Shown here in pieces: positions 3,558-38,917 of a DNA stretch of 44,829 nucleotides (the stretch's first letter is position 1; each line of letters begins with the position of its first letter). The notes under the pieces are model-generated. The model saw only the letters and a list, made by a program, of their open reading frames with translations, ran no database searches and was not told where the DNA came from. Made by a program: the position numbers and the translations under genes. Origin of the DNA: Escherichia phage vB_Eco_Lzu_P3; the sequence record PQ295796, one strand, 5' to 3'.

Positions 3558-3576
3558 CCTTTGGGATGTGCGCCTG

Positions 3577-4677
3577 TTAGGACGCTGTGGTCGCGGTCAG
3601 CGTAACCAGTACGCCCGCCGTTTCCTTGATGTGACGGGTAGGCACTGCCTGTGCGGCCTGGGTCTTACGACGGCCTTTAGTATCGCCATCACCAACGGCG
3701 CCAACATCCTGCACGGTTGCCGGTGCGTTGTCCACCTGGCCCTGGTCCAGTTCCCAGTTAGCGGAAGTGGTAATATCGTCCAGTTTGAACGAGCGAACAC
3801 CTTCGATCGGAGTACGAGCGGACGCCTTCAGACGATAGCCTTTAACAGCCACGTTGAAGTCGAACTCGCCCTGCCACCAGCGCTCAATGTTCTCGTTACC
3901 ACCTTTTTCCTGCGCCAGCATATCAAGGCCATTGGTGGTGACTGCAACCGCGCCAGGGACCAGACCCAGCATTTTACCAGCACCCATTGCATCGGCAGCG
4001 GCATCGGAGATAATGAAACGGCGGCCCAGGCCATCGCCCATTACCTGCAGATCGCCGATCGCGAATACCTGCTCGGCAGATGGAAGCGCCTGGTAAGCAA
4101 TGAAGTTTGCCCAGGTAACGCCGTCCATAAACCAGGACTTAATCAAAGACGCCTGATCGCCGAACTTAGAAGCCGCCAGCGGGAAGTCTGCCAGGGTCGG
4201 GAAGGTACGACCGCCAACGCCGTCAACGCGCGCCGGTTGGGTGTAGTTTGCCGCTGCGTTGCTTTCAATAGCGGCTTTGCCCGCACCGATACCAGCTTTG
4301 AGGTAATGCAGCATAATCGCTTGAGTAGCCTGTGCCGCAATCTCAGCCGCAACGCTGTTAACGTTGGTTTCGATCTTAGCCATCATGGCCTTAGTGATTG
4401 CTACCGGACCCACTTTCGCGGAAAGGTTAACCGAGTTGGTCAGCATACGCGCCAGCACTTTTGCGGTCGCTGGAGTACCGACAGGGGCGTAGGCGTTACG
4501 GTCGGTAACGAGGTTGGCGATCAAGCCTACGGACATTTTTTCTACAACGTCCTTCAGCACTTCACCCGTGCCGAGAACAACAGCGCCGTTAGCGGCAGCG
4601 TTGAACACGTTCAGGTTATCGGGGATCATTTGCGTAACCGCGGTGACGAGTTTACGCTGGAACACTGTTAAAGACAT
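3577..4677 (-). CDS. Major capsid protein
   Basis: 366-aa ORF with AAGGA RBS, preceded by a scaffold-like gene and followed by a strong intrinsic terminator. Size and position are typical of a major capsid gene. Confidence 0.7.
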   Translation of the reverse strand: MSLTVFQRKLVTAVTQMIPDNLNVFNAAANGAVVLGTGEVLKDVVEKMSVGLIANLVTDRNAYAPVGTPATAKVLARMLTNSVNLSAKVGPVAITKAMMAKIETNVNSVAAEIAAQATQAIMLHYLKAGIGAGKAAIESNAAANYTQPARVDGVGGRTFPTLADFPLAASKFGDQASLIKSWFMDGVTWANFIAYQALPSAEQVFAIGDLQVMGDGLGRRFIISDAAADAMGAGKMLGLVPGAVAVTTNGLDMLAQEKGGNENIERWWQGEFDFNVAVKGYRLKASARTPIEGVRSFKLDDITTSANWELDQGQVDNAPATVQDVGAVGDGDTKGRRKTQAAQAVPTRHIKETAGVLVTLTATTAS

Positions 4678-19936: not shown

Positions 19937-20446
19937 ATGTTTGAACAAATCGTAAACCTGATTACTCGCGGCGTAGTAGCACTGGAAACAATCGCTAAAC
20001 ATTATGAAACCGTTGGCGCTGCCGTTGGTAAGCAGGAAGATAAAAAGCCATCTAAGGCGAAAAAAGAAGTCGTAGAAGATGACGACGCTGAAGACGAAGC
20101 ACCGGCGAAAACCAAAAAAGCACCGGCGAAAGGTAAGGCCAAAAAAGAAGTCGTAGAAGATGACGACGATGAAGCCGAAGACGAAAAACCGGCGAAAGGT
20201 AAAAAAGCCACGGCGAAAGGCAAAGGTAAGAAAGATGCCGATCCGCTGGCAGAGATGCGCGACGAAATCAAACAGTATGCCGCGATTATCGCCGGTGGTG
20301 ATGACGACGACGCCAACGACGAATTTGACGACCTGCTGGAATCGTTCGAGATCAAATCAATCGCTAAACTGGAAGATGACGACGTCGAAGACTTCCACAA
20401 AGATCTGAAAGAAATCGTCGAAACCTATTTCGAACTGGAAGACTAA
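19937..20446 (+). CDS. Highly acidic early protein with internal charged repeats
   Basis: Start chosen at ATG 19937 with GGAGA RBS; the ORF track extends it to 19709. Contains tandem KKEVVEDDD(A/D)E…PAKGK repeats. It is the first gene downstream of the strongest predicted early promoter. Confidence 0.5.
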   Translation: MFEQIVNLITRGVVALETIAKHYETVGAAVGKQEDKKPSKAKKEVVEDDDAEDEAPAKTKKAPAKGKAKKEVVEDDDDEAEDEKPAKGKKATAKGKGKKDADPLAEMRDEIKQYAAIIAGGDDDDANDEFDDLLESFEIKSIAKLEDDDVEDFHKDLKEIVETYFELED

Positions 20447-22690: not shown

Positions 22691-23473
22691 ATGGCTAAAG
22701 TCAACCTGAAAAATGTGCGCGTATGTTTCCTTAAAATTTGGGAGCGCGATACCCCTAAACAGGATGGTCAGAAACCGGCATACCGTGCAGTGATTCTTCT
22801 TGATAAAGAAGATCCGCAGGTGGACAAAGTGGAAGCGGCAGCGCGCGCAGTGCTCACCGACAAGCTGAAATCCGAGAAGAATGCTGATAAGTGGATGGAC
22901 CGCCACTACGCCCAGGATTCTAAGGAATGCGCAGTTCGCGACGGTGACGAGCGCGATGAAGTGACCGAAGAATTCGAAGGCATGTTGTACATCAACGCCA
23001 AATCGTTCAAACAGCCGATCATTCAAACGTCACTCGGCGAGAAGCAGACGGAACAAGGTCTGACCGTAGAAGGCGACGAGATCGAAGGCCAGGAGATCTA
23101 CTCCGGTTGTTATTGCAATGTGTCCCTGGATATTTGGGCGTGGAACAATACCAACGGCAAGGGACTCGGTGCTGGTCTTTTGGGTCTGCGCTTCCGCGAT
23201 GACGGCGAAGCCTTCGGCGGTGGCGGGTCTTCTTGCTCAGACGAAGACCTGGGCGACGATGACGAAGATGAAAGCCCGCGCAAGTCCAAAAAATCAAAAC
23301 GTCGTGATGACGATGACGAAGACGACAAGCCGCGCAAGTCCAAAAAATCCAAGCGCCGCGATGACGACGACGAAGATGAAGATGAGAAACCTCGTAAACG
23401 TCGTAAGCCACGCGATGACGAAGATGAGGACGACGACGAAGACGAAGCACCACGTAAACGTCGCCGCCGTTAA
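22691..23473 (+). CDS. Putative ssDNA-binding protein (T7 gp2.5-like / DUF2815-like) with charged repeat C-terminus
   Basis: N-terminus MAKVNLKNVRVCFLKIWE… resembles phage SSB-like proteins. C-terminal third is made of PRKSKKSKRRDDDDEDD-type repeats. Start at ATG 22691 with GAGGAA RBS. Confidence 0.45.
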   Translation: MAKVNLKNVRVCFLKIWERDTPKQDGQKPAYRAVILLDKEDPQVDKVEAAARAVLTDKLKSEKNADKWMDRHYAQDSKECAVRDGDERDEVTEEFEGMLYINAKSFKQPIIQTSLGEKQTEQGLTVEGDEIEGQEIYSGCYCNVSLDIWAWNNTNGKGLGAGLLGLRFRDDGEAFGGGGSSCSDEDLGDDDEDESPRKSKKSKRRDDDDEDDKPRKSKKSKRRDDDDEDEDEKPRKRRKPRDDEDEDDDEDEAPRKRRRR

Positions 23474-32350: not shown

Positions 32351-34174
32351 TTATTTCTCCGCTAACTTACTTTCTAACGCCTCAACCTTCGCCGCCAAAT
32401 GCTGAACAGTAGCGATGAGGTCAAGTAGCAGGACGTTTTCGTCTAATGCCAGAAACTCTTTACCCGTTGCGCTGGTGTACTTACGAACATACTGCGGGTC
32501 GATCTCTTCCAACTGCTGCGCGATAAAACCACGTCTGACCGTTTCCTTTTTGTCGTAGTTATAAACAAAGGAAGAGTATTCCATTGCCATAACGTTATCG
32601 AACGCAACTTGAGTGCCGATCCTGGCGATATCATGCTTCAGCGCCCTGTCGGACACAGGGGACTTTGAGAAAAGATAGTTAACAGTCCCGGAGTTGTTGC
32701 CAAAGGTAATTTCGTAGCCTTCTGGGTTAAAGGTAGTATTTCGAATGATATCGCCGTTAGGCTGTACTCCTGACGCCATATCATAGTCAAAGACCTGCGA
32801 AATCATAGCGTGAGGGTGGGACGACGCCGATTCGGGGTGAATCAACGCCCCGAACGAAATAAAGTTACGCCACCCGCCACCTGTCGTACCAGTGCCGCCG
32901 CCGACAAAACCTACGTGACCCGCGTATTGACCGCTATTCCATGTATTCGCGAGGGTGACGTAGGTATTACCCGGCGACGCCGCGGTGGACGATGGATTCA
33001 GTCCTTTGTTGAAAATGATCTTGCCATCATATTTAAAGTCCCACGACGGCGAGGTCACCGGGTTGAGGGCGTTAACGGTCGCCAAACGGGTCCAGGCGTC
33101 TACGTTATTACGGCCTTGAATCTGTAGCGACGTTCTGTATTTTTCGGCCCCAGCAACGATCACAGATGAGTCAAATCTACCGCCGTATACTTCTGTGCCA
33201 TTCGCCGGATCTGAAGCGTAATTATTGCGTAATCCCCAAAGTCCCACGTCATCAAGGCCGCGCCACACCCACCCTTTAGTCGCAGAGTCGAGAGGGTCGA
33301 CTGGATCCGCTCCTACGCGAAGCGGTCCTGACGGCATAAGGTTAGCCCACGACGCACTTTTGTCCGCAAGCCCGGCGAGGTTGCCGGATTTGGTTAGCAG
33401 ATTGTCGGGGTTTACGCTTTGCGCCCATTCTTCGGCCTGATCGCGAAATCCCTGCGCGGCAGTGCTGGCGGCTTGCGCTTCAGCCTTCGCGGCGTTGGCC
33501 TCGTCGCGAATAGCGCCGGTGTCAGTCTTGATCTGGTTAGTCTGGTCTTTGATCGCCTGCGTATCAGCCTTAATCTGGTCAGTCTGCGTTTTGATGGTAT
33601 TAGTAGCGTCGCGAATGCCTGCCGTCTCTGCCTTAATCTGATTGGTGGCGTCGCGAATGCCTGCCGTCTCAGTCTTGAAGCCTTCGGCCTCATTGCGAAA
33701 TCCTTGCGCTGCTGCTTCAGATGCCGCGGCTTGTTGTTGCAGGTTGCGCATTTCAACGGGGTCAACTTCCTTCAGCAATTGCGACAGATAGCCCCACGAC
33801 ATGCCCTGCATAACTTGCCCGTTCGGCAGCGTTACCGTGACTTCTTCTTCGTCTCCGAAGATGGCACGCCAGTTGTTTTCGTCCGCGATCAGCATACGGA
33901 GCGCTTTCTGCGCCTGGACGGTGACACCCATAGTGGCAAGTGACATGGTATCGCGCTTAACGCCATCCCACGCAAGACCTGCCGCCGTTGGGCCGTCGAA
34001 CGGCAGCACAAGCGTAAGCGCGGTGTCGCTTTCGACGGACGCTATCGCAACAGTGTAAGGCACTTGCCCTACTACCAGCGATAAGAAGTCGCCAGCTGTA
34101 AACGAGGTAAACGTCGTGCCTACCCCGACAACCGCCTTGCTGTTATTCGTTACGGATAGTGTACCCGCTGCCAT
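32351..34174 (-). CDS. Side tail fibre protein with C-terminal intramolecular chaperone (peptidase S74-like) domain
   Basis: Start at ATG 34174 with GAGGA RBS. Contains repeated …TAGIRDATNQIK…-type units. The C-terminus (…ALKHDIARIGTQVAFDNVMAMEYSSFVYNYDK…GFIAQQLEEIDPQYV…) matches the auto-cleaving chaperone domain found on phage tail fibres and endosialidases. Confidence 0.65.
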   Translation of the reverse strand: MAAGTLSVTNNSKAVVGVGTTFTSFTAGDFLSLVVGQVPYTVAIASVESDTALTLVLPFDGPTAAGLAWDGVKRDTMSLATMGVTVQAQKALRMLIADENNWRAIFGDEEEVTVTLPNGQVMQGMSWGYLSQLLKEVDPVEMRNLQQQAAASEAAAQGFRNEAEGFKTETAGIRDATNQIKAETAGIRDATNTIKTQTDQIKADTQAIKDQTNQIKTDTGAIRDEANAAKAEAQAASTAAQGFRDQAEEWAQSVNPDNLLTKSGNLAGLADKSASWANLMPSGPLRVGADPVDPLDSATKGWVWRGLDDVGLWGLRNNYASDPANGTEVYGGRFDSSVIVAGAEKYRTSLQIQGRNNVDAWTRLATVNALNPVTSPSWDFKYDGKIIFNKGLNPSSTAASPGNTYVTLANTWNSGQYAGHVGFVGGGTGTTGGGWRNFISFGALIHPESASSHPHAMISQVFDYDMASGVQPNGDIIRNTTFNPEGYEITFGNNSGTVNYLFSKSPVSDRALKHDIARIGTQVAFDNVMAMEYSSFVYNYDKKETVRRGFIAQQLEEIDPQYVRKYTSATGKEFLALDENVLLLDLIATVQHLAAKVEALESKLAEK

Positions 34175-34191
34175 AGCTGAATCCTCATAAA

Positions 34192-34224
34192 TTGGTTGCA
34201 ATCCTGGTCGAGCGGTGTAATACT
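34192..34224 (+). promoter_or_regulatory. Promoter TTGCAA-N17-(TGt)AATACT, with TTGGTTGCA at the -35
   Basis: Upstream of the lipoprotein gene; divergent from the tail fibre gene start. Confidence 0.4.
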
Positions 34225-34254
34225 AAAACTCAACCAAATATAGGAAATGATACC

Positions 34255-34479
34255 ATGAAAACTTTAATTATGATTTGTGCGGTTATGTTGTCCGGCTGTG
34301 CTGTAGAACGCAACAACGGCGATTGCATTACTATGGCTTACGGTAGCTGCATGCTGCGCTACGTTGACGGGCAAAAAGTGCCCTCCGGGGATGTGGACTT
34401 GCGATTCACTGGGCTGTCTGCCGATAGTGACGGCAATTTTTCCGGCACTGTTTCAGTTAAATCACGGGAGTGGAAGTAA
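34255..34479 (+). CDS. Small lipoprotein, candidate Cor/Llp-like superinfection-exclusion protein
   Basis: Signal peptide with lipobox (MKTLIMICAVMLSGC). About 74 aa. Transcribed divergently from the tail fibre gene, from a promoter at 34196..34224. Confidence 0.45.
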   Translation: MKTLIMICAVMLSGCAVERNNGDCITMAYGSCMLRYVDGQKVPSGDVDLRFTGLSADSDGNFSGTVSVKSREWK

Positions 34480-35444
34480 TGGGCGCTGGGATACTTATCG
34501 ACTACAACGACGGAAGGCCGCGCATGGAGATAACCGCAGGACTTCGCGCGCCGTCATTCTGTACCTCATTCTATCAGCGCTGCCAGTCTGATAAGACGCT
34601 TACTATTAACACTCAGCTAACGCCAGGGTCAGATCTGGTCGTCGCGCTCACAAGCCCCGTTGAAGTTATAGAAGTATTCGACCAGACACTGGTCTTGCCC
34701 GACCCTTTCTACGTCACCTCAGTACAACGTAATGGGGATGGCGGAATCACCTTGCGAGGTGAAGACGCATATGGCGCATATAGCGGGCTTCCAACATGGG
34801 GCGGGGTGATCATGGAAGTGTTGCCGGTGGGTTCGAGCAACGCAGGGTTACTGGTGGCGAACTCGACGGACTTCACCGCCATATCAAATGTATCCAGGCT
34901 AATGACCTGCCAATATGCGCAGCGCGTGTGGGTGAACGGAAGTATGCCGTTACCTGTAGGCGGTGTCCCATTCGCGCGCTGGGACGACGGAAACGTGTCG
35001 GTCGGCTTCGATGGCGGAAGTATTATCGTCCGTAATGCGTCCTATGGTGGGATTGACGACGTAGGCGCTGCCGTTGAAATGGACCTGGTTATATTCAACA
35101 ATACGCCACCCACCCCTGGAAACGGCATCACCATGACAAACAACCAGGGTCAGGTCACGTTCTCAACAGTGAATAAGCCATTTGTTTATGACCGCCTTAT
35201 CTATATCGGCGGCGGCGATCAGTACATAGGCAATAGCCTGGTCCAGCTTTCGTATACCGGCGCGCTCATTGAGAACAACGGCGGCTACAATCACGTTCGA
35301 ATGAACGGGATTCGAATGGCGGGCGGTAATGTGCGCATCGCCAAAAACCGGGTAATCGGCAACTATTCACGGCAGCAATTCCAAATGCCGGGTAAAAATA
35401 TTGCAGTACCCACCCCGTTACTCGTAATTCCTAACATCTATTAA
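34479..35444 (+). CDS. Hypothetical Gly/Asn/Val-rich protein, predicted beta-helix-like
   Basis: ATG overlaps the lipoprotein stop (TAATG), with a GGGAG RBS. Repetitive …NGGYNHVRMNGIRMAGGNVRIAKNRVIGN… segments suggest a parallel beta-helix. Confidence 0.4.
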   Translation: MGAGILIDYNDGRPRMEITAGLRAPSFCTSFYQRCQSDKTLTINTQLTPGSDLVVALTSPVEVIEVFDQTLVLPDPFYVTSVQRNGDGGITLRGEDAYGAYSGLPTWGGVIMEVLPVGSSNAGLLVANSTDFTAISNVSRLMTCQYAQRVWVNGSMPLPVGGVPFARWDDGNVSVGFDGGSIIVRNASYGGIDDVGAAVEMDLVIFNNTPPTPGNGITMTNNQGQVTFSTVNKPFVYDRLIYIGGGDQYIGNSLVQLSYTGALIENNGGYNHVRMNGIRMAGGNVRIAKNRVIGNYSRQQFQMPGKNIAVPTPLLVIPNIY

Positions 35445-35470
35445 AAAGGGGCCGGATGGCCCCTTCTCCT
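35443..35470. terminator. Bidirectional terminator between the beta-helix gene and the J-like gene
   Basis: GGGGCC-ggat-GGCCCC with an A-tract upstream and T-rich sequence downstream. Confidence 0.55.
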
Positions 35471-38400
35471 TTACCACGTCCCCACTTTCACCCTACCCCC
35501 GCCAGGTAATGGCACGTTAATGCCGGTGGCGTCGATCTGTACCGACCCTCCAGAGAATCCGAAGTTACCAGTAGTAGCGAACAAGTTGCCTCGTACCGTT
35601 ACGTTGTTGAACTCCGCCCCGCCATCCTTCGCGATACGCCAGCCACTGTTGCCTGGATTCCAGTTATTCGACTGCAGCGTGTCCGTGATCTGCGCGAAGT
35701 TGATAGACGCGTTCTTAATGCGTGCGGTGTCAATGTACACCTGACCGCCGTCAACGATAAACGCGGACGAAAGCGACCCATTAGATGGGTGCATGATGTA
35801 GAACTGGTCCGCCTTGAACGCGATGCGGGATTTAACCTCGCCACCTTCCGCAACAACTGAAAGCTGCATACCGGCATCGTAGTAAGCCCCGTTATACGTC
35901 ACGCCAGCCTTAAGGCTATATGTGGCGCTGCCACCAGCATGGTTAAACGAAGACGTCATCTTCTGCTCGATAGCTGCAGACTGCTGACCGAACTGTGCCG
36001 CGACCTGGGTCTTGTACTCCGCCAGTGCGCCAGCTACGTCTGCCGTTGCCGTTTGTACCTGCTGGATGGCGGCTTCCTGTTCCCCAAACTTAGCGGCAAC
36101 AGTTTGTTGGTACTGGGCGAACGCTTGTTCGTGCGTGCTTTGCGCTGTCTGCAACGTGTGGATTGATGCCTCCGCATCATCAAGTCGTGTGCCGATCAAC
36201 GTTTCCAGTTGCGCTACTGCCTTGTGGGCGTCCGTGGCAACGTTATACGCCACCTTGATTTCCGCATAAATCCCTTGATACTCGGAGCGGGCGTTAATCA
36301 ATTGCTGTGCGTCCGTTAGCATAGACTCATAAATGCCTTGAGGAATGGTGTCGATTGCTTCCTGGAAGTGTTTACCGTCTTCGGAAGTCAAGAACTCGTC
36401 ATCAAGCCCCTTCATGTACTCGTCAACTTTGTCACTCACCTGCCCTTCAAACGGGGCCGACCAGTCCGACAGGTTGCCGATTTTATCCGCTACACGGGCG
36501 CGCAACTGCTGGTAAATTCCGAACTCCAGCGACGTTTGCGCATACTCCGCTCCGGGGTATGGGACGTTTGTTAAGAACTTCCATTCCGTTTCGCCCGTCT
36601 TGCGGACTTCAAGCTCGGTGTAAGAAATATCCGTCGCGGCGTTGTTGTGGTTCCACTTCCATAGAATTTGATGCAGACCCGAAATCGCGTTGGTGATGAT
36701 TGGTGCGTTAAGCCCACCGAGGCGACCTTCCACCGGCGTGATCGCGGAAGACACCCACGGGGACGAGATTTCGCCCATGCCAATTGCGCGGACGCGTGCC
36801 TGATAGTTACCGGAGAACACGTTAGGGATGTGCGCCCCATTCGACGCCGTGCGCGGGATATTCACCCAGTCGTTACCCCACTGGATCGCCATATTCTGCA
36901 GGCTAGTACGCCTCCACTGGATTTCATACACCACGGCATCTTTCACCGGCGGGAAAACAATATCCACGTTGGTGATTAGCTGGCCTTGCGATGAGATCTG
37001 CGACGGGGTGATGGTAACGGATTCCGGCCCCTTCATCACACCGTCCGGCACTTGCGTAAAGATGCCTGGGTCTAGTCGTGCGCCATTATCAACGGCATCA
37101 TATTTGCTATCGTTGTATTCAATCCCGCGCACCGAGAAAGTGCTCGTAGAGTCGTCATACTCCAGATCGGTGATGCGGAATTTTTGCAACTGGATATCAT
37201 CGCCATCAACGCAAAACGGTTGGTCTGGAATCGGGTCGGCATCCAGTGCGGTTTTTAGCGTGACCTTGTTGCCGTTGACGCTGGCGATCTCGCGAGTCTC
37301 CACATTTCCGCTATCGGTGCGCACCAGGAACTTATCACCAGGGCGGAATGTGATTTCGCTGTCTGTGTTAAGCACGGTACGCGTGCCAGGGTCTGACAAC
37401 AGGCGACCGCCGCGAGTCTCGAATCCGCCAGAAATATTAGTATCCGCGATCGCGACTACGCTACCAGGAATAAAGAATAGCCCCTCCATGCCAACCTTAA
37501 AGCTGACCTGCTGGTCCAACTGGTTGGAGATTAGCGCCCAGTGTCCGCGGCGTTGCGCTTCAGATTCGCGCGTACAGCCGATCGCCGTTATATCAAGACG
37601 GTTAATCTTATGGCGGCGCACCAGTTCGACGCGCTGGCCCGTTGCGATAGCGTCATCATAGTGGTTTTTCGGGTTGCCGTATGCTACCGCGAAAGTGGAG
37701 TACCGCGTTTTCTGGCTGCCAGATGCGTAGTCGAATCGACCATCAATAACCGAGGCGTTGGTGATAGTGTGCGACACTGCTGCGACCGGTTGGTCACTGA
37801 CGATATTCAACATTTGGTTTCCCCACCAGGTCATCCCGGCGAAGATGGCAGCTAAATCCTTAAGCACGGTCCAGGCGTCTGTCTGCGACTGGATGTACAT
37901 ATCATTCTTAAATCTGATTTCCCGTCCGCCGTTGCCGTCGCTGACCAACTGATCGCAGCGCTGCGCGATCTGGTAGAGCGCGTACCGGTTCAGCATTTGC
38001 GGTTTGATCCGGCGACCGAGGCCGAAGCGCTCAGTAATACAAATATCGTACCAGTGCCACGCAGGGTTATCCGTCCATGCGCGTTTGAACGTGCCGTCCC
38101 AGTCCCCCGAATAGGTATGATTAATCGGGTCGTAGTTGTTAGGTATTAGAACTTTGCGACCTTTGCACTTAATGGACACGCGCGGGATGTTCTGGAACGC
38201 TTTAGCGTCGAACTCCACGAACAACAGCGCGGTTAGCGGGTAGCGAAGACGGGCGTCTATAATCTCAGTAATAGATTGCACCTGGATATCGTTAACCACT
38301 TTTGCCGATGTGGAGTCTGCCGTTATGCGGTGCACCTCCACGCGCCAGCCGGTGTTAACGTTCGGCGGTAGCTCGATGCGGTGATCGCGCTCGTATAGCG

Positions 38401-38917
38401 ACATTGTTTTACCAACGGCAGCGAAGGTAAACTCACGCGGGTCGGCGTTATCCGTATACACAACGATCTTATAGTCTATGCGCCCGCCCACCAGGTCGCC
38501 ATTATCTTCGTTTGTGTACAGGGCCGGAATGCCGATGCGAATGCGCACGGCGTCCAAACTGGTGTCGTTAATCTGGCGCACCCACGGCGTGCCGTTTTCC
38601 AGTTTTACGCCGACAGATTGCTCACTTTCCACCGCTGAAAATCCGTGGATCACATCCTGGTGCTGTGTTCCGGGGCGGAACTCCACACGCGCGCCGGGGA
38701 AGTTTTCAGACAGGTCTGCATTCTGGATCGGTGTTCCGTCCAGATATACGCGCCGCCGTAATTCGTTAGGGTCTGGAATACCTTCGAACTCACCTTCTCC
38801 CAGCGCAAGCAAGATGCGGATTTTAGCCAGCGAATGCAGGCTATCGGGTGTCTCCTGTGGGGTGTGCTGTTTGCCACCGCCGCCTTTATGGCCTGTGACG
38901 TCATAGACAATCGTCAT
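35471..38917 (-). CDS. Central tail fibre / host specificity protein (lambda gpJ-like)
   Basis: 1148 aa, immediately downstream of the I-like gene with an ATGA overlap. Size and position are those of J-like tail-tip proteins. Confidence 0.8.
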   Translation of the reverse strand: MTIVYDVTGHKGGGGKQHTPQETPDSLHSLAKIRILLALGEGEFEGIPDPNELRRRVYLDGTPIQNADLSENFPGARVEFRPGTQHQDVIHGFSAVESEQSVGVKLENGTPWVRQINDTSLDAVRIRIGIPALYTNEDNGDLVGGRIDYKIVVYTDNADPREFTFAAVGKTMSLYERDHRIELPPNVNTGWRVEVHRITADSTSAKVVNDIQVQSITEIIDARLRYPLTALLFVEFDAKAFQNIPRVSIKCKGRKVLIPNNYDPINHTYSGDWDGTFKRAWTDNPAWHWYDICITERFGLGRRIKPQMLNRYALYQIAQRCDQLVSDGNGGREIRFKNDMYIQSQTDAWTVLKDLAAIFAGMTWWGNQMLNIVSDQPVAAVSHTITNASVIDGRFDYASGSQKTRYSTFAVAYGNPKNHYDDAIATGQRVELVRRHKINRLDITAIGCTRESEAQRRGHWALISNQLDQQVSFKVGMEGLFFIPGSVVAIADTNISGGFETRGGRLLSDPGTRTVLNTDSEITFRPGDKFLVRTDSGNVETREIASVNGNKVTLKTALDADPIPDQPFCVDGDDIQLQKFRITDLEYDDSTSTFSVRGIEYNDSKYDAVDNGARLDPGIFTQVPDGVMKGPESVTITPSQISSQGQLITNVDIVFPPVKDAVVYEIQWRRTSLQNMAIQWGNDWVNIPRTASNGAHIPNVFSGNYQARVRAIGMGEISSPWVSSAITPVEGRLGGLNAPIITNAISGLHQILWKWNHNNAATDISYTELEVRKTGETEWKFLTNVPYPGAEYAQTSLEFGIYQQLRARVADKIGNLSDWSAPFEGQVSDKVDEYMKGLDDEFLTSEDGKHFQEAIDTIPQGIYESMLTDAQQLINARSEYQGIYAEIKVAYNVATDAHKAVAQLETLIGTRLDDAEASIHTLQTAQSTHEQAFAQYQQTVAAKFGEQEAAIQQVQTATADVAGALAEYKTQVAAQFGQQSAAIEQKMTSSFNHAGGSATYSLKAGVTYNGAYYDAGMQLSVVAEGGEVKSRIAFKADQFYIMHPSNGSLSSAFIVDGGQVYIDTARIKNASINFAQITDTLQSNNWNPGNSGWRIAKDGGAEFNNVTVRGNLFATTGNFGFSGGSVQIDATGINVPLPGGGRVKVGTW

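Follow-up and report, generated by a model that had tools for sequence, protein, structure and literature searches.

A putative LptD-directed gene pair, encoding a receptor-binding protein and a superinfection-exclusion lipoprotein, in the Dhillonvirus coliphage vB_Eco_Lzu_P3

Genomic context and layout of the gene pair

The sequence record PQ295796, a stretch of 44,829 nucleotides that is referred to as the window throughout, constitutes the complete, circularly permuted genome of the Dhillonvirus coliphage Escherichia phage vB_Eco_Lzu_P3. [quoted passage not shown] The upstream gene (34255-34479) encodes a lipoprotein of 74 amino acids (aa), while the downstream gene (34479-35444) encodes a protein of 321 aa. 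As set out below, this cassette very probably represents the 'RBP locus' of a small Dhillonvirus siphovirus targeting LptD, the essential lipopolysaccharide (LPS) translocon, and would combine an LptD-binding receptor-binding protein (RBP) with an LptD-blocking lipoprotein.

Several basic features of the pair had been recognized in an earlier note, which was made from the DNA letters without database searches and described a 74-aa lipoprotein with a lipobox, an overlap of its stop codon with the start of a 321-aa protein rich in Gly and Asn, and transcription of both genes divergently from a tail fibre gene. Each of these points is borne out: the lipoprotein starts at ATG 34255, carries the lipobox L-S-G-C and matches the Pfam family PF24052; the TAA and ATG codons of the two genes share base 34479; Gly and Asn account for 12.5% and 7.8% of the larger protein, respectively; and the pair on the + strand is separated by a spacer of 80 bp from the lateral tail fibre gene on the - strand. 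At its other end, the pair converges on the gpJ-like gene (35471-38917, - strand), with 26 nt between the ends of the RBP and gpJ genes.

In DNA comparisons, the 1.4 kb around the locus share 99.4% identity with Escherichia phage vB_Eco_Lzu_P1 and 99.3% with HK1, followed by the BASEL phages Bas84 (91.5%), Bas83 and Bas85 (87%) and Oekolampad (Bas18; 83%). In total, DNA matches to the locus were found in 151 phage records. The gene order throughout is that of the related Dhillonvirus genomes compared, and the succession of lipoprotein, RBP and gpJ genes is common to Oekolampad and Rtp.

The lipoprotein

Although the open reading frame (ORF) of the lipoprotein was listed from TTG 34192, the real start is ATG 34255, which is preceded by AGGAA at 34242-34246. 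The N-terminus reads MKTLIMICAVMLSG and is followed by Cys15, so that the signal peptide comprises aa 1-14; an Ala at position +2 after the lipobox cysteine would be expected to direct the protein to the outer membrane. The gene ends with TAA at 34477-34479, which together with the downstream ATG (34479-34481) forms the sequence TAATG.

The protein matches PF24052, the 'Phage lipoprotein family', with 76.9 bits (cut-off 27; E 1.2e-21), and PHROG 4281 is the best match among the PHROG families (E 1e-32). It is 93% identical to the superinfection-exclusion (SE) protein of Oekolampad, bas18_0026 or SE-Oeko, from which it differs by 5 substitutions. Moreover, BLASTP aligns it with Rtp45 of phage Rtp at 36% identity (E 2e-13), and a PDB sequence search retrieves the chain 9RPS_D, named 'Phage lipoprotein', which is Rtp45 (E 8.5e-9). 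In an alignment of four members, namely the proteins of the window and of Oekolampad, Rtp45 and phi32_106 of phage phiEco32, the residues G14, C15, C24, C32, V42, P43, G45, D48, R50, G53, E72 and W73 are invariant, as is the hairpin motif composed of G39, V42, P43, G45, D48, R50 and G53; a matching alignment is given in SI (supplementary information) Fig. S5B of PMC12685063. The cysteines C24 and C32 align with the disulfide pair Cys30-Cys38 of Rtp45, and formation of the same pair is predicted for the window protein. Because of its 93% identity to SE-Oeko and its clear homology to Rtp45, for which a structure in complex with LptDE is available, the 74-aa protein is assigned, by homology, as a superinfection-exclusion lipoprotein that would act on the phage's own receptor, LptD.

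The predicted receptor-binding protein

The start codon of the RBP gene is preceded at a distance of 8 nt by the Shine-Dalgarno sequence GGGAG, which is located inside the lipoprotein gene. PF20051/DUF6453 is the sole Pfam family matched by the 321-aa protein, with 402.1 bits (cut-off 25) across profile positions 1-290 of 291. Over residues 1-321, the protein matches chain C of the PDB entries 9RPT, 9RPW and 9RQI (E 1.5e-187), which is the RBP of Oekolampad. The corresponding gene product, bas18_0025 or RBP-Oeko, aligns over all 321 residues without gaps at 88% identity, while Rtp44 of phage Rtp is a more distant relative (33% identity, E 1e-45).

In addition, an AlphaFold2 (AF2) model built from 50 homologues (predicted local distance difference test score, pLDDT, 85.6; predicted template modelling score, pTM, 0.87) is all-beta, and its one significant Foldseek neighbour in the PDB is 9RPT_C. 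By this test, the model shares the fold of the solved LptD-binding RBP. Furthermore, Gln299, which forms a hydrogen bond with Ser350 of LptD in the solved complex, is kept in the window protein. On these grounds, the 321-aa protein is identified as an orthologue of the Oekolampad RBP and thus as the predicted terminal receptor-binding protein of the phage, with LptD as its putative binding partner.

Within the RBP family, conservation peaks at residues 1-20, where the mean identity to the window protein amounts to 0.81, and at residues 121-140 (0.73). The N-terminal ~26 residues (34479-34556) are the most conserved part of the family. A second conserved segment, NSTDFTAI, comprises residues 127-134 (34857-34880), with S129, T130, F132 and I135 being invariant, and is the sole part of the AF2 model with a pLDDT below 50. 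The conservation of both segments, the low model confidence and the disorder of the tail-proximal part in the cryo-EM (cryo-electron microscopy) map of the orthologue suggest that residues 1-26 and 127-134 form a surface for docking to gpJ.

A further observation concerns Citrobacter phage HCF1, in which residues 1-34 of the RBP have a counterpart with 76% identity. It is an unannotated fragment, bordered by a small ORF on one side and by the end of a longer J-like gene on the other. This fragment looks like the remnant of an RBP gene that was lost as recognition moved into an extended J protein. It had been considered as a sign of a J-docking anchor shared with other types of RBP, a view that was dropped since a probable deletion remnant is uninformative on anchoring.

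Candidate promoter and terminator and proposed operon

A candidate sigma-70-type promoter (34196-34224, + strand) was read by eye in the divergent spacer. It consists of the -35 element TTGCAA (34196-34201), a spacer of 17 nt and an extended -10 element, TG-t-AATACT (34216-34224). Oekolampad and Lzu_P1 both share the -10 block unchanged, while the -35 element is identical in Oekolampad and reads TTGCAT in Lzu_P1; it is on this conservation that a promoter for the gene pair is proposed. A strict sigma-70 scan of 33900-35700 listed no site in the divergent spacer, and its counts were no higher than in shuffled sequences.

Between the convergent stop codons of the RBP and gpJ genes, a GC-rich hairpin with the core GGGGCC-GGAT-GGCCCC is located at 35446-35465. 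Its folding energy amounts to -15.7 kcal/mol (z -2.5) for the + strand and to -19.3 kcal/mol (z -3.6) for the - strand, and it is followed by UUUUU on the - strand and by UUCUCCUUU on the + strand. The hairpin could plausibly serve as a bidirectional intrinsic terminator. It was not listed by the consensus scan, perhaps as a result of A-U pairing that lengthens the stem so that it includes part of the T run. Another terminator-like hairpin, at 34419-34435 within the lipoprotein gene, was considered as an attenuator acting between the pair and rejected: its stem and T run are broken in Oekolampad, its fold z is only -1.8, and sites of this kind were fewer in the scan than expected by chance. 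Given this arrangement, the two genes are presumed to be co-transcribed and co-expressed as one inverted operon with translational coupling.

Proposed LptD recognition and superinfection exclusion

A 'bona fide RBP locus' downstream of gpJ was defined for Drexlerviridae, Dhillonvirus, Nonagvirus and Seuratvirus in the work of Maffei et al. (2021, PMC8594841), in which seven phages with this module, including Oekolampad, were blocked by small in-frame deletions in lptD, and non-covalent attachment of the RBP to J was proposed. Subsequently, it was noted that Bas18 and Rtp likely encode SE lipoproteins at this locus (van den Berg et al. 2022, PMC9586334). The structural basis was provided by Dunbar et al. 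(PNAS 2025, PMC12685063), who determined the structure of the Oekolampad RBP in complex with Shigella LptDE by cryo-EM (PDB 9RPT, 9RPW, 9RQI). The RBP binds as a monomer deep in the lumen of LptD, which adopts an open state not seen before, with an interface of about 1,700 Å2 and contacts mainly to EL3-5 and EL11, and resistant LptD mutants abolish RBP binding (PMC12685063). Among lptD changes, deletion of Y658-Y678 or of L394-V396 as well as Y671N and D352Y block Oekolampad. In the LptDE-Rtp45 structure (PDB 9RPS), likewise obtained by cryo-EM, Rtp45 is periplasmic and lies near strands 5-8, between LptE and LptM, while its hairpin reaches upwards through the lumen and shifts EL4 by as much as 20 Å, a displacement that is not compatible with binding of the RBP (PMC12685063). 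More recently, a 2026 preprint associated the RBP family with LptD across many phages and assigned Bas83 and Bas84 to LptD; the closest BASEL relatives of the window phage, Bas83-85, are predicted to be LptD-specific.

Transferred to vB_Eco_Lzu_P3, these insights suggest the following course of infection. The gpJ-like central tail fibre would carry the RBP at its tip, and binding of the RBP to LptD would commit the virion to irreversible adsorption, as has been shown for the 88%-identical orthologue of Oekolampad. The 74-aa protein would be processed by Sec and Lsp and, given its Ala at +2, targeted to the outer membrane, where it would reside in the inner leaflet. Like its homologue Rtp45, it would bind to periplasmic LptD near strands 5-8, between LptE and LptM, and send its beta-hairpin up the LptD lumen, whereby loop EL4 would be pushed outward by up to about 20 Å. 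LptD would then be unable to take the RBP-binding state, with the predicted outcome that superinfection is prevented and that progeny are not wasted on the debris of lysed cells. Expression of both components would be ensured by a single inverted operon comprising the promoter in the 80-bp spacer, the TAATG overlap, the Shine-Dalgarno sequence in the upstream gene and the shared hairpin terminator facing gpJ.

Several points weigh against this interpretation. Direct observation covers how the genes are built, the families to which their products belong, the conservation of the cysteines and the fold; LptD binding and EL4 displacement are carried over from orthologues, and the interpretation as a whole draws on orthologue experiments and on sequence comparison. 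Between the RBP and the solved Oekolampad protein there are 39 differences, among them W151R and a cluster at 240-249. In addition, the exclusion structure is that of Rtp45, which is 36% identical to the window lipoprotein, Dunbar et al. did not succeed in expressing the SE protein of Oekolampad, and their cryo-EM map shows disorder in the portion of the RBP that is proximal to the tail (PMC12685063). As to the proposed operon, the candidate promoter attains a consensus score of 8/12 and went unreported in the scan because this falls under the threshold of 9, and the TAATG overlap is not universal, since a gap of 2 nt takes its place in Oekolampad.

With respect to the receptor, one could argue that drift has taken this DUF6453 allele to a different receptor in the outer membrane or to an LptD variant of another host, in which case the lipoprotein would block that receptor. 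Such a drift would be in line with the 39 substitutions relative to the solved RBP, with the stronger divergence of the RBP (88% identity) than of the flanking J (96%) and with the dip in similarity and the frequent horizontal exchange that were reported for the locus in BASEL (PMC8594841). However, even members of the family with 32-33% identity (Rtp44/Bas01 and TheodorHerzl) are still LptD-dependent, the closer relatives Bas83-85 are assigned to LptD, and receptor switches in such phages go along with unrelated protein families and not with point divergence. A drifted receptor is thus regarded as quite improbable.

The chance is slimmer still that the 321-aa protein is a beta-helix depolymerase, a tailspike or another glycan-acting, surface-modifying enzyme. 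The earlier note had ascribed beta-helix-like repeats to it and had entertained a depolymerase-like or surface-modifying role; the Gly/Asn-rich composition on which it remarked is real, but no internal repeat was detected by self-BLAST, and neither an enzymatic domain, such as one of pectate-lyase type, nor a beta-helix fold nor repeated rungs emerged from Pfam, Foldseek and self-BLAST, which effectively refutes this option. Structure prediction, which the note had proposed as a check, led to the Oekolampad RBP instead of a beta-helix, and this RBP is monomeric when bound to its receptor, which is a protein. By contrast, the suggestion of a second receptor-binding protein, raised in the same note, agrees well with the 88% identity to an RBP solved on LptDE. 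Equally negligible is the prospect that the pair is a moron consisting of a Cor/Llp-type lipoprotein that blocks FhuA and an unrelated 'membrane protein' for host takeover. It owes what appeal it has to nomenclature, since PHROG 1265 is labelled 'membrane protein' and filed in the moron category, the RefSeq product name is likewise 'membrane protein' and the same term is used in several GenBank records, and in addition to a weak match of the lipoprotein to PHROG 1119 (Cor; E 9e-4). Yet this match is confined to the signal peptide (aa 1-30), the RBP is all-beta and devoid of a segment of transmembrane strength (maximum Kyte-Doolittle mean over 19 residues, 1.41), and the structural identification of the 321-aa protein with the LptD-binding 9RPT_C refutes the moron reading. 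The kinship to Cor and Llp that the earlier note implied does not hold either, as PDB sequence searches returned no Llp or pb5 chain; its proposal of superinfection exclusion stands insofar as homology to SE-Oeko and Rtp45 points to a lipoprotein blocking the phage's own receptor, and needs amending insofar as the target would be LptD and not FhuA, on which Cor and Llp act.

Comparison with known systems

Among characterized systems, the LptD-directed pair proposed here is closest to RBP-Oeko and SE-Oeko of Oekolampad. Differences comprise 39 substitutions in the RBP and 5 in the SE protein, the stop/start arrangement mentioned above and the distal half of the lateral tail fibre, which is unrelated. 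The pair Rtp44/Rtp45 of phage Rtp likewise combines PF20051 with PF24052 and is arranged in the order lipoprotein-then-RBP, inverted and convergent on gpJ, with a one-base overlap. The lipobox, the Cys pair and the hairpin residues are conserved, and the receptor is LptD. However, Rtp belongs to another phage family (Drexlerviridae, Braunvirinae), the identities are only 33% for the RBP and 36% for the SE protein, and the C-terminal third of Rtp45 differs in length and sequence from that of the window lipoprotein.

A functional parallel is found in phage T5, where a straight central fibre carries the monomeric RBP pb5, which binds to a beta-barrel of the outer membrane, and where the same receptor is inactivated from inside by Llp, a small periplasm-facing lipoprotein encoded by an adjacent gene (PMC9586334). 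For neither protein of the window, however, was a match to pb5 or Llp obtained in PDB sequence searches or in fold searches of the RBP. The receptor of T5 is FhuA, a TonB-dependent transporter, and Llp acts by reverse allostery through the plug, whereas proteins of the Rtp45 type displace EL4 via the barrel lumen. In T5, llp is an early gene that is transcribed separately from the pb5 gene; in the window, by contrast, the lipoprotein and RBP genes appear to be co-transcribed.

The Cor proteins of T1, phi80, N15 and HK022 (PHROG 1119) are also small outer-membrane lipoproteins that are encoded near the J/tail-fibre region and exclude phages using the same receptor. Unlike the window lipoprotein, Cor targets FhuA, and the similarity between them is limited to the signal peptide and lipobox; membership in the Cor family was rejected, as the match to PHROG 1119 (E 8.9e-4) covers residues 1-30 only. 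Judged from these comparisons, Cor and Llp are best described as analogues, not homologues, of the window lipoprotein. Finally, as in phage lambda, a tail tip scaffold of the gpJ type (FNIII-A_GpJ, Phage_Tail_Tip) carries the terminal receptor specificity. In lambda, the domain that binds LamB directly is the C-terminal domain of J itself, while here the receptor-binding part is a separate polypeptide that is encoded downstream on the opposite strand.

Overall, the system is already known from close orthologues with solved structures, and the locus is an ordinary, well-explained one. Nevertheless, two genes whose products almost every related GenBank record calls 'hypothetical protein', 'membrane protein' or 'putative lipoprotein' can now be named as LptD-binding receptor-binding protein and LptD-directed superinfection-exclusion lipoprotein, and the terminal receptor of the phage becomes predictable. 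Since small loop deletions in lptD confer resistance with little outer-membrane defect (PMC12685063), this prediction is useful for the choice of phage cocktails and for resistance forecasting. The only forward-looking element concerns the occurrence of family members in Kuravirus podoviruses and enterobacterial lambdoid prophages.

Distribution of the two families beyond small siphoviruses

Kuravirus podoviruses, among them phiEco32, SU7, NJ01, EK010, PE006 and PH444, encode members of both families at separate positions. The phiEco32 protein phi32_21 is a full-length DUF6453 protein (E 1.2e-23), whose sole relative in the PDB is the Oekolampad RBP and whose gene is located in the tail module, between a 'tail tip fiber' gene and the genes for internal virion proteins. 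About 45 kb away, next to tRNA-Arg and among the early genes, phi32_106 encodes a PF24052 lipoprotein (E 2.4e-36), which shares the three conserved cysteines of the window lipoprotein.

The combination of DUF6453 and PF24052 might tentatively be viewed as a portable kit for LptD recognition that is used well beyond the small siphoviruses, even though somewhat more speaks for reserve than for acceptance. If this were true, Kuravirus podoviruses would engage LptD as terminal receptor and then block it to protect the infected cells, and the cassette of the window would constitute an exchangeable unit that is complete in itself, equipped with a promoter of its own, coupled genes and a bidirectional terminator. 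The BASEL-2025 paper takes the LPS core, contacted by short tail fibres, as the terminal receptor of Kuravirus, and a literature search retrieved no paper linking Kuravirus to LptD.

DUF6453 proteins with 45-55% identity to the window RBP are also common in the chromosomes of Citrobacter, Salmonella and E. coli. In a Citrobacter lambdoid prophage, represented by one metagenome scaffold, the DUF6453 gene is located after a lambda-like J gene, on the same strand as the latter, and precedes a tail fibre gene; no lipoprotein gene is adjacent, and the layout is unlike the inverted cassette of the virulent phages.

In addition, the cassette is present in records labelled Acinetobacter phage NJ01 (OQ221563), Campylobacter phage A134/A121 (MG065663, MG065670) and Sodalis phage SO-1, with 60-88% protein or 85% DNA identity to that of the window. 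Recognition of E. coli-type LptD in Campylobacter would be unexpected. These host labels may be wrong, reflecting carry-over coliphages, or the module may cross genera.

Neighbouring genes and other features of the window

The lateral tail fibre gene (32351-34174, - strand) encodes a protein of 607 aa starting at ATG 34174, a position that was set by synteny with Oekolampad. The protein combines a coiled-coil shaft with an S74 intramolecular chaperone domain at its C-terminus (Peptidase_S74, E 3e-11) and belongs to PHROG 1980. Its N-terminal ~260 aa and the heptad-like shaft are common to the Oekolampad fibre, while the distal part shows no relationship until the S74 domain is reached; the unrelated distal half of the gene corresponds to 32351-33400 on the - strand. 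Recognition of the primary (O-antigen) receptor is the task of this fibre, which takes no part in the function of the cassette. Because its distal part is unrelated to that of Oekolampad, the primary (O-antigen) specificity would differ between the two phages, although they have the LptD module in common.

The gpJ-like central tail fibre or tail tip protein (1148 aa) matches the Pfam families FNIII-A_GpJ, Phage-tail_3 and Phage_Tail_Tip as well as PHROG 31, and is 96% identical to the J-like protein of Oekolampad. The faster divergence of the RBP and the limited similarity of the lateral fibre to that of Oekolampad fit two neighbouring hot spots of host range.

Scans of the whole window for tRNAs and Rfam families yielded no hits. 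Two imperfect tandem repeats occur in + strand ORFs of the replication/early region, at 20060-20225 (81 bp x 2.0) and 23255-23380 (54 bp x 2.3), and encode charged segments rich in Lys, Glu and Asp. Moreover, the major head protein gene (3577-4677, - strand) is mirrored by a near full-length antisense ORF of 367 aa (3568-4671, + strand), which is probably an artefact of codon composition.

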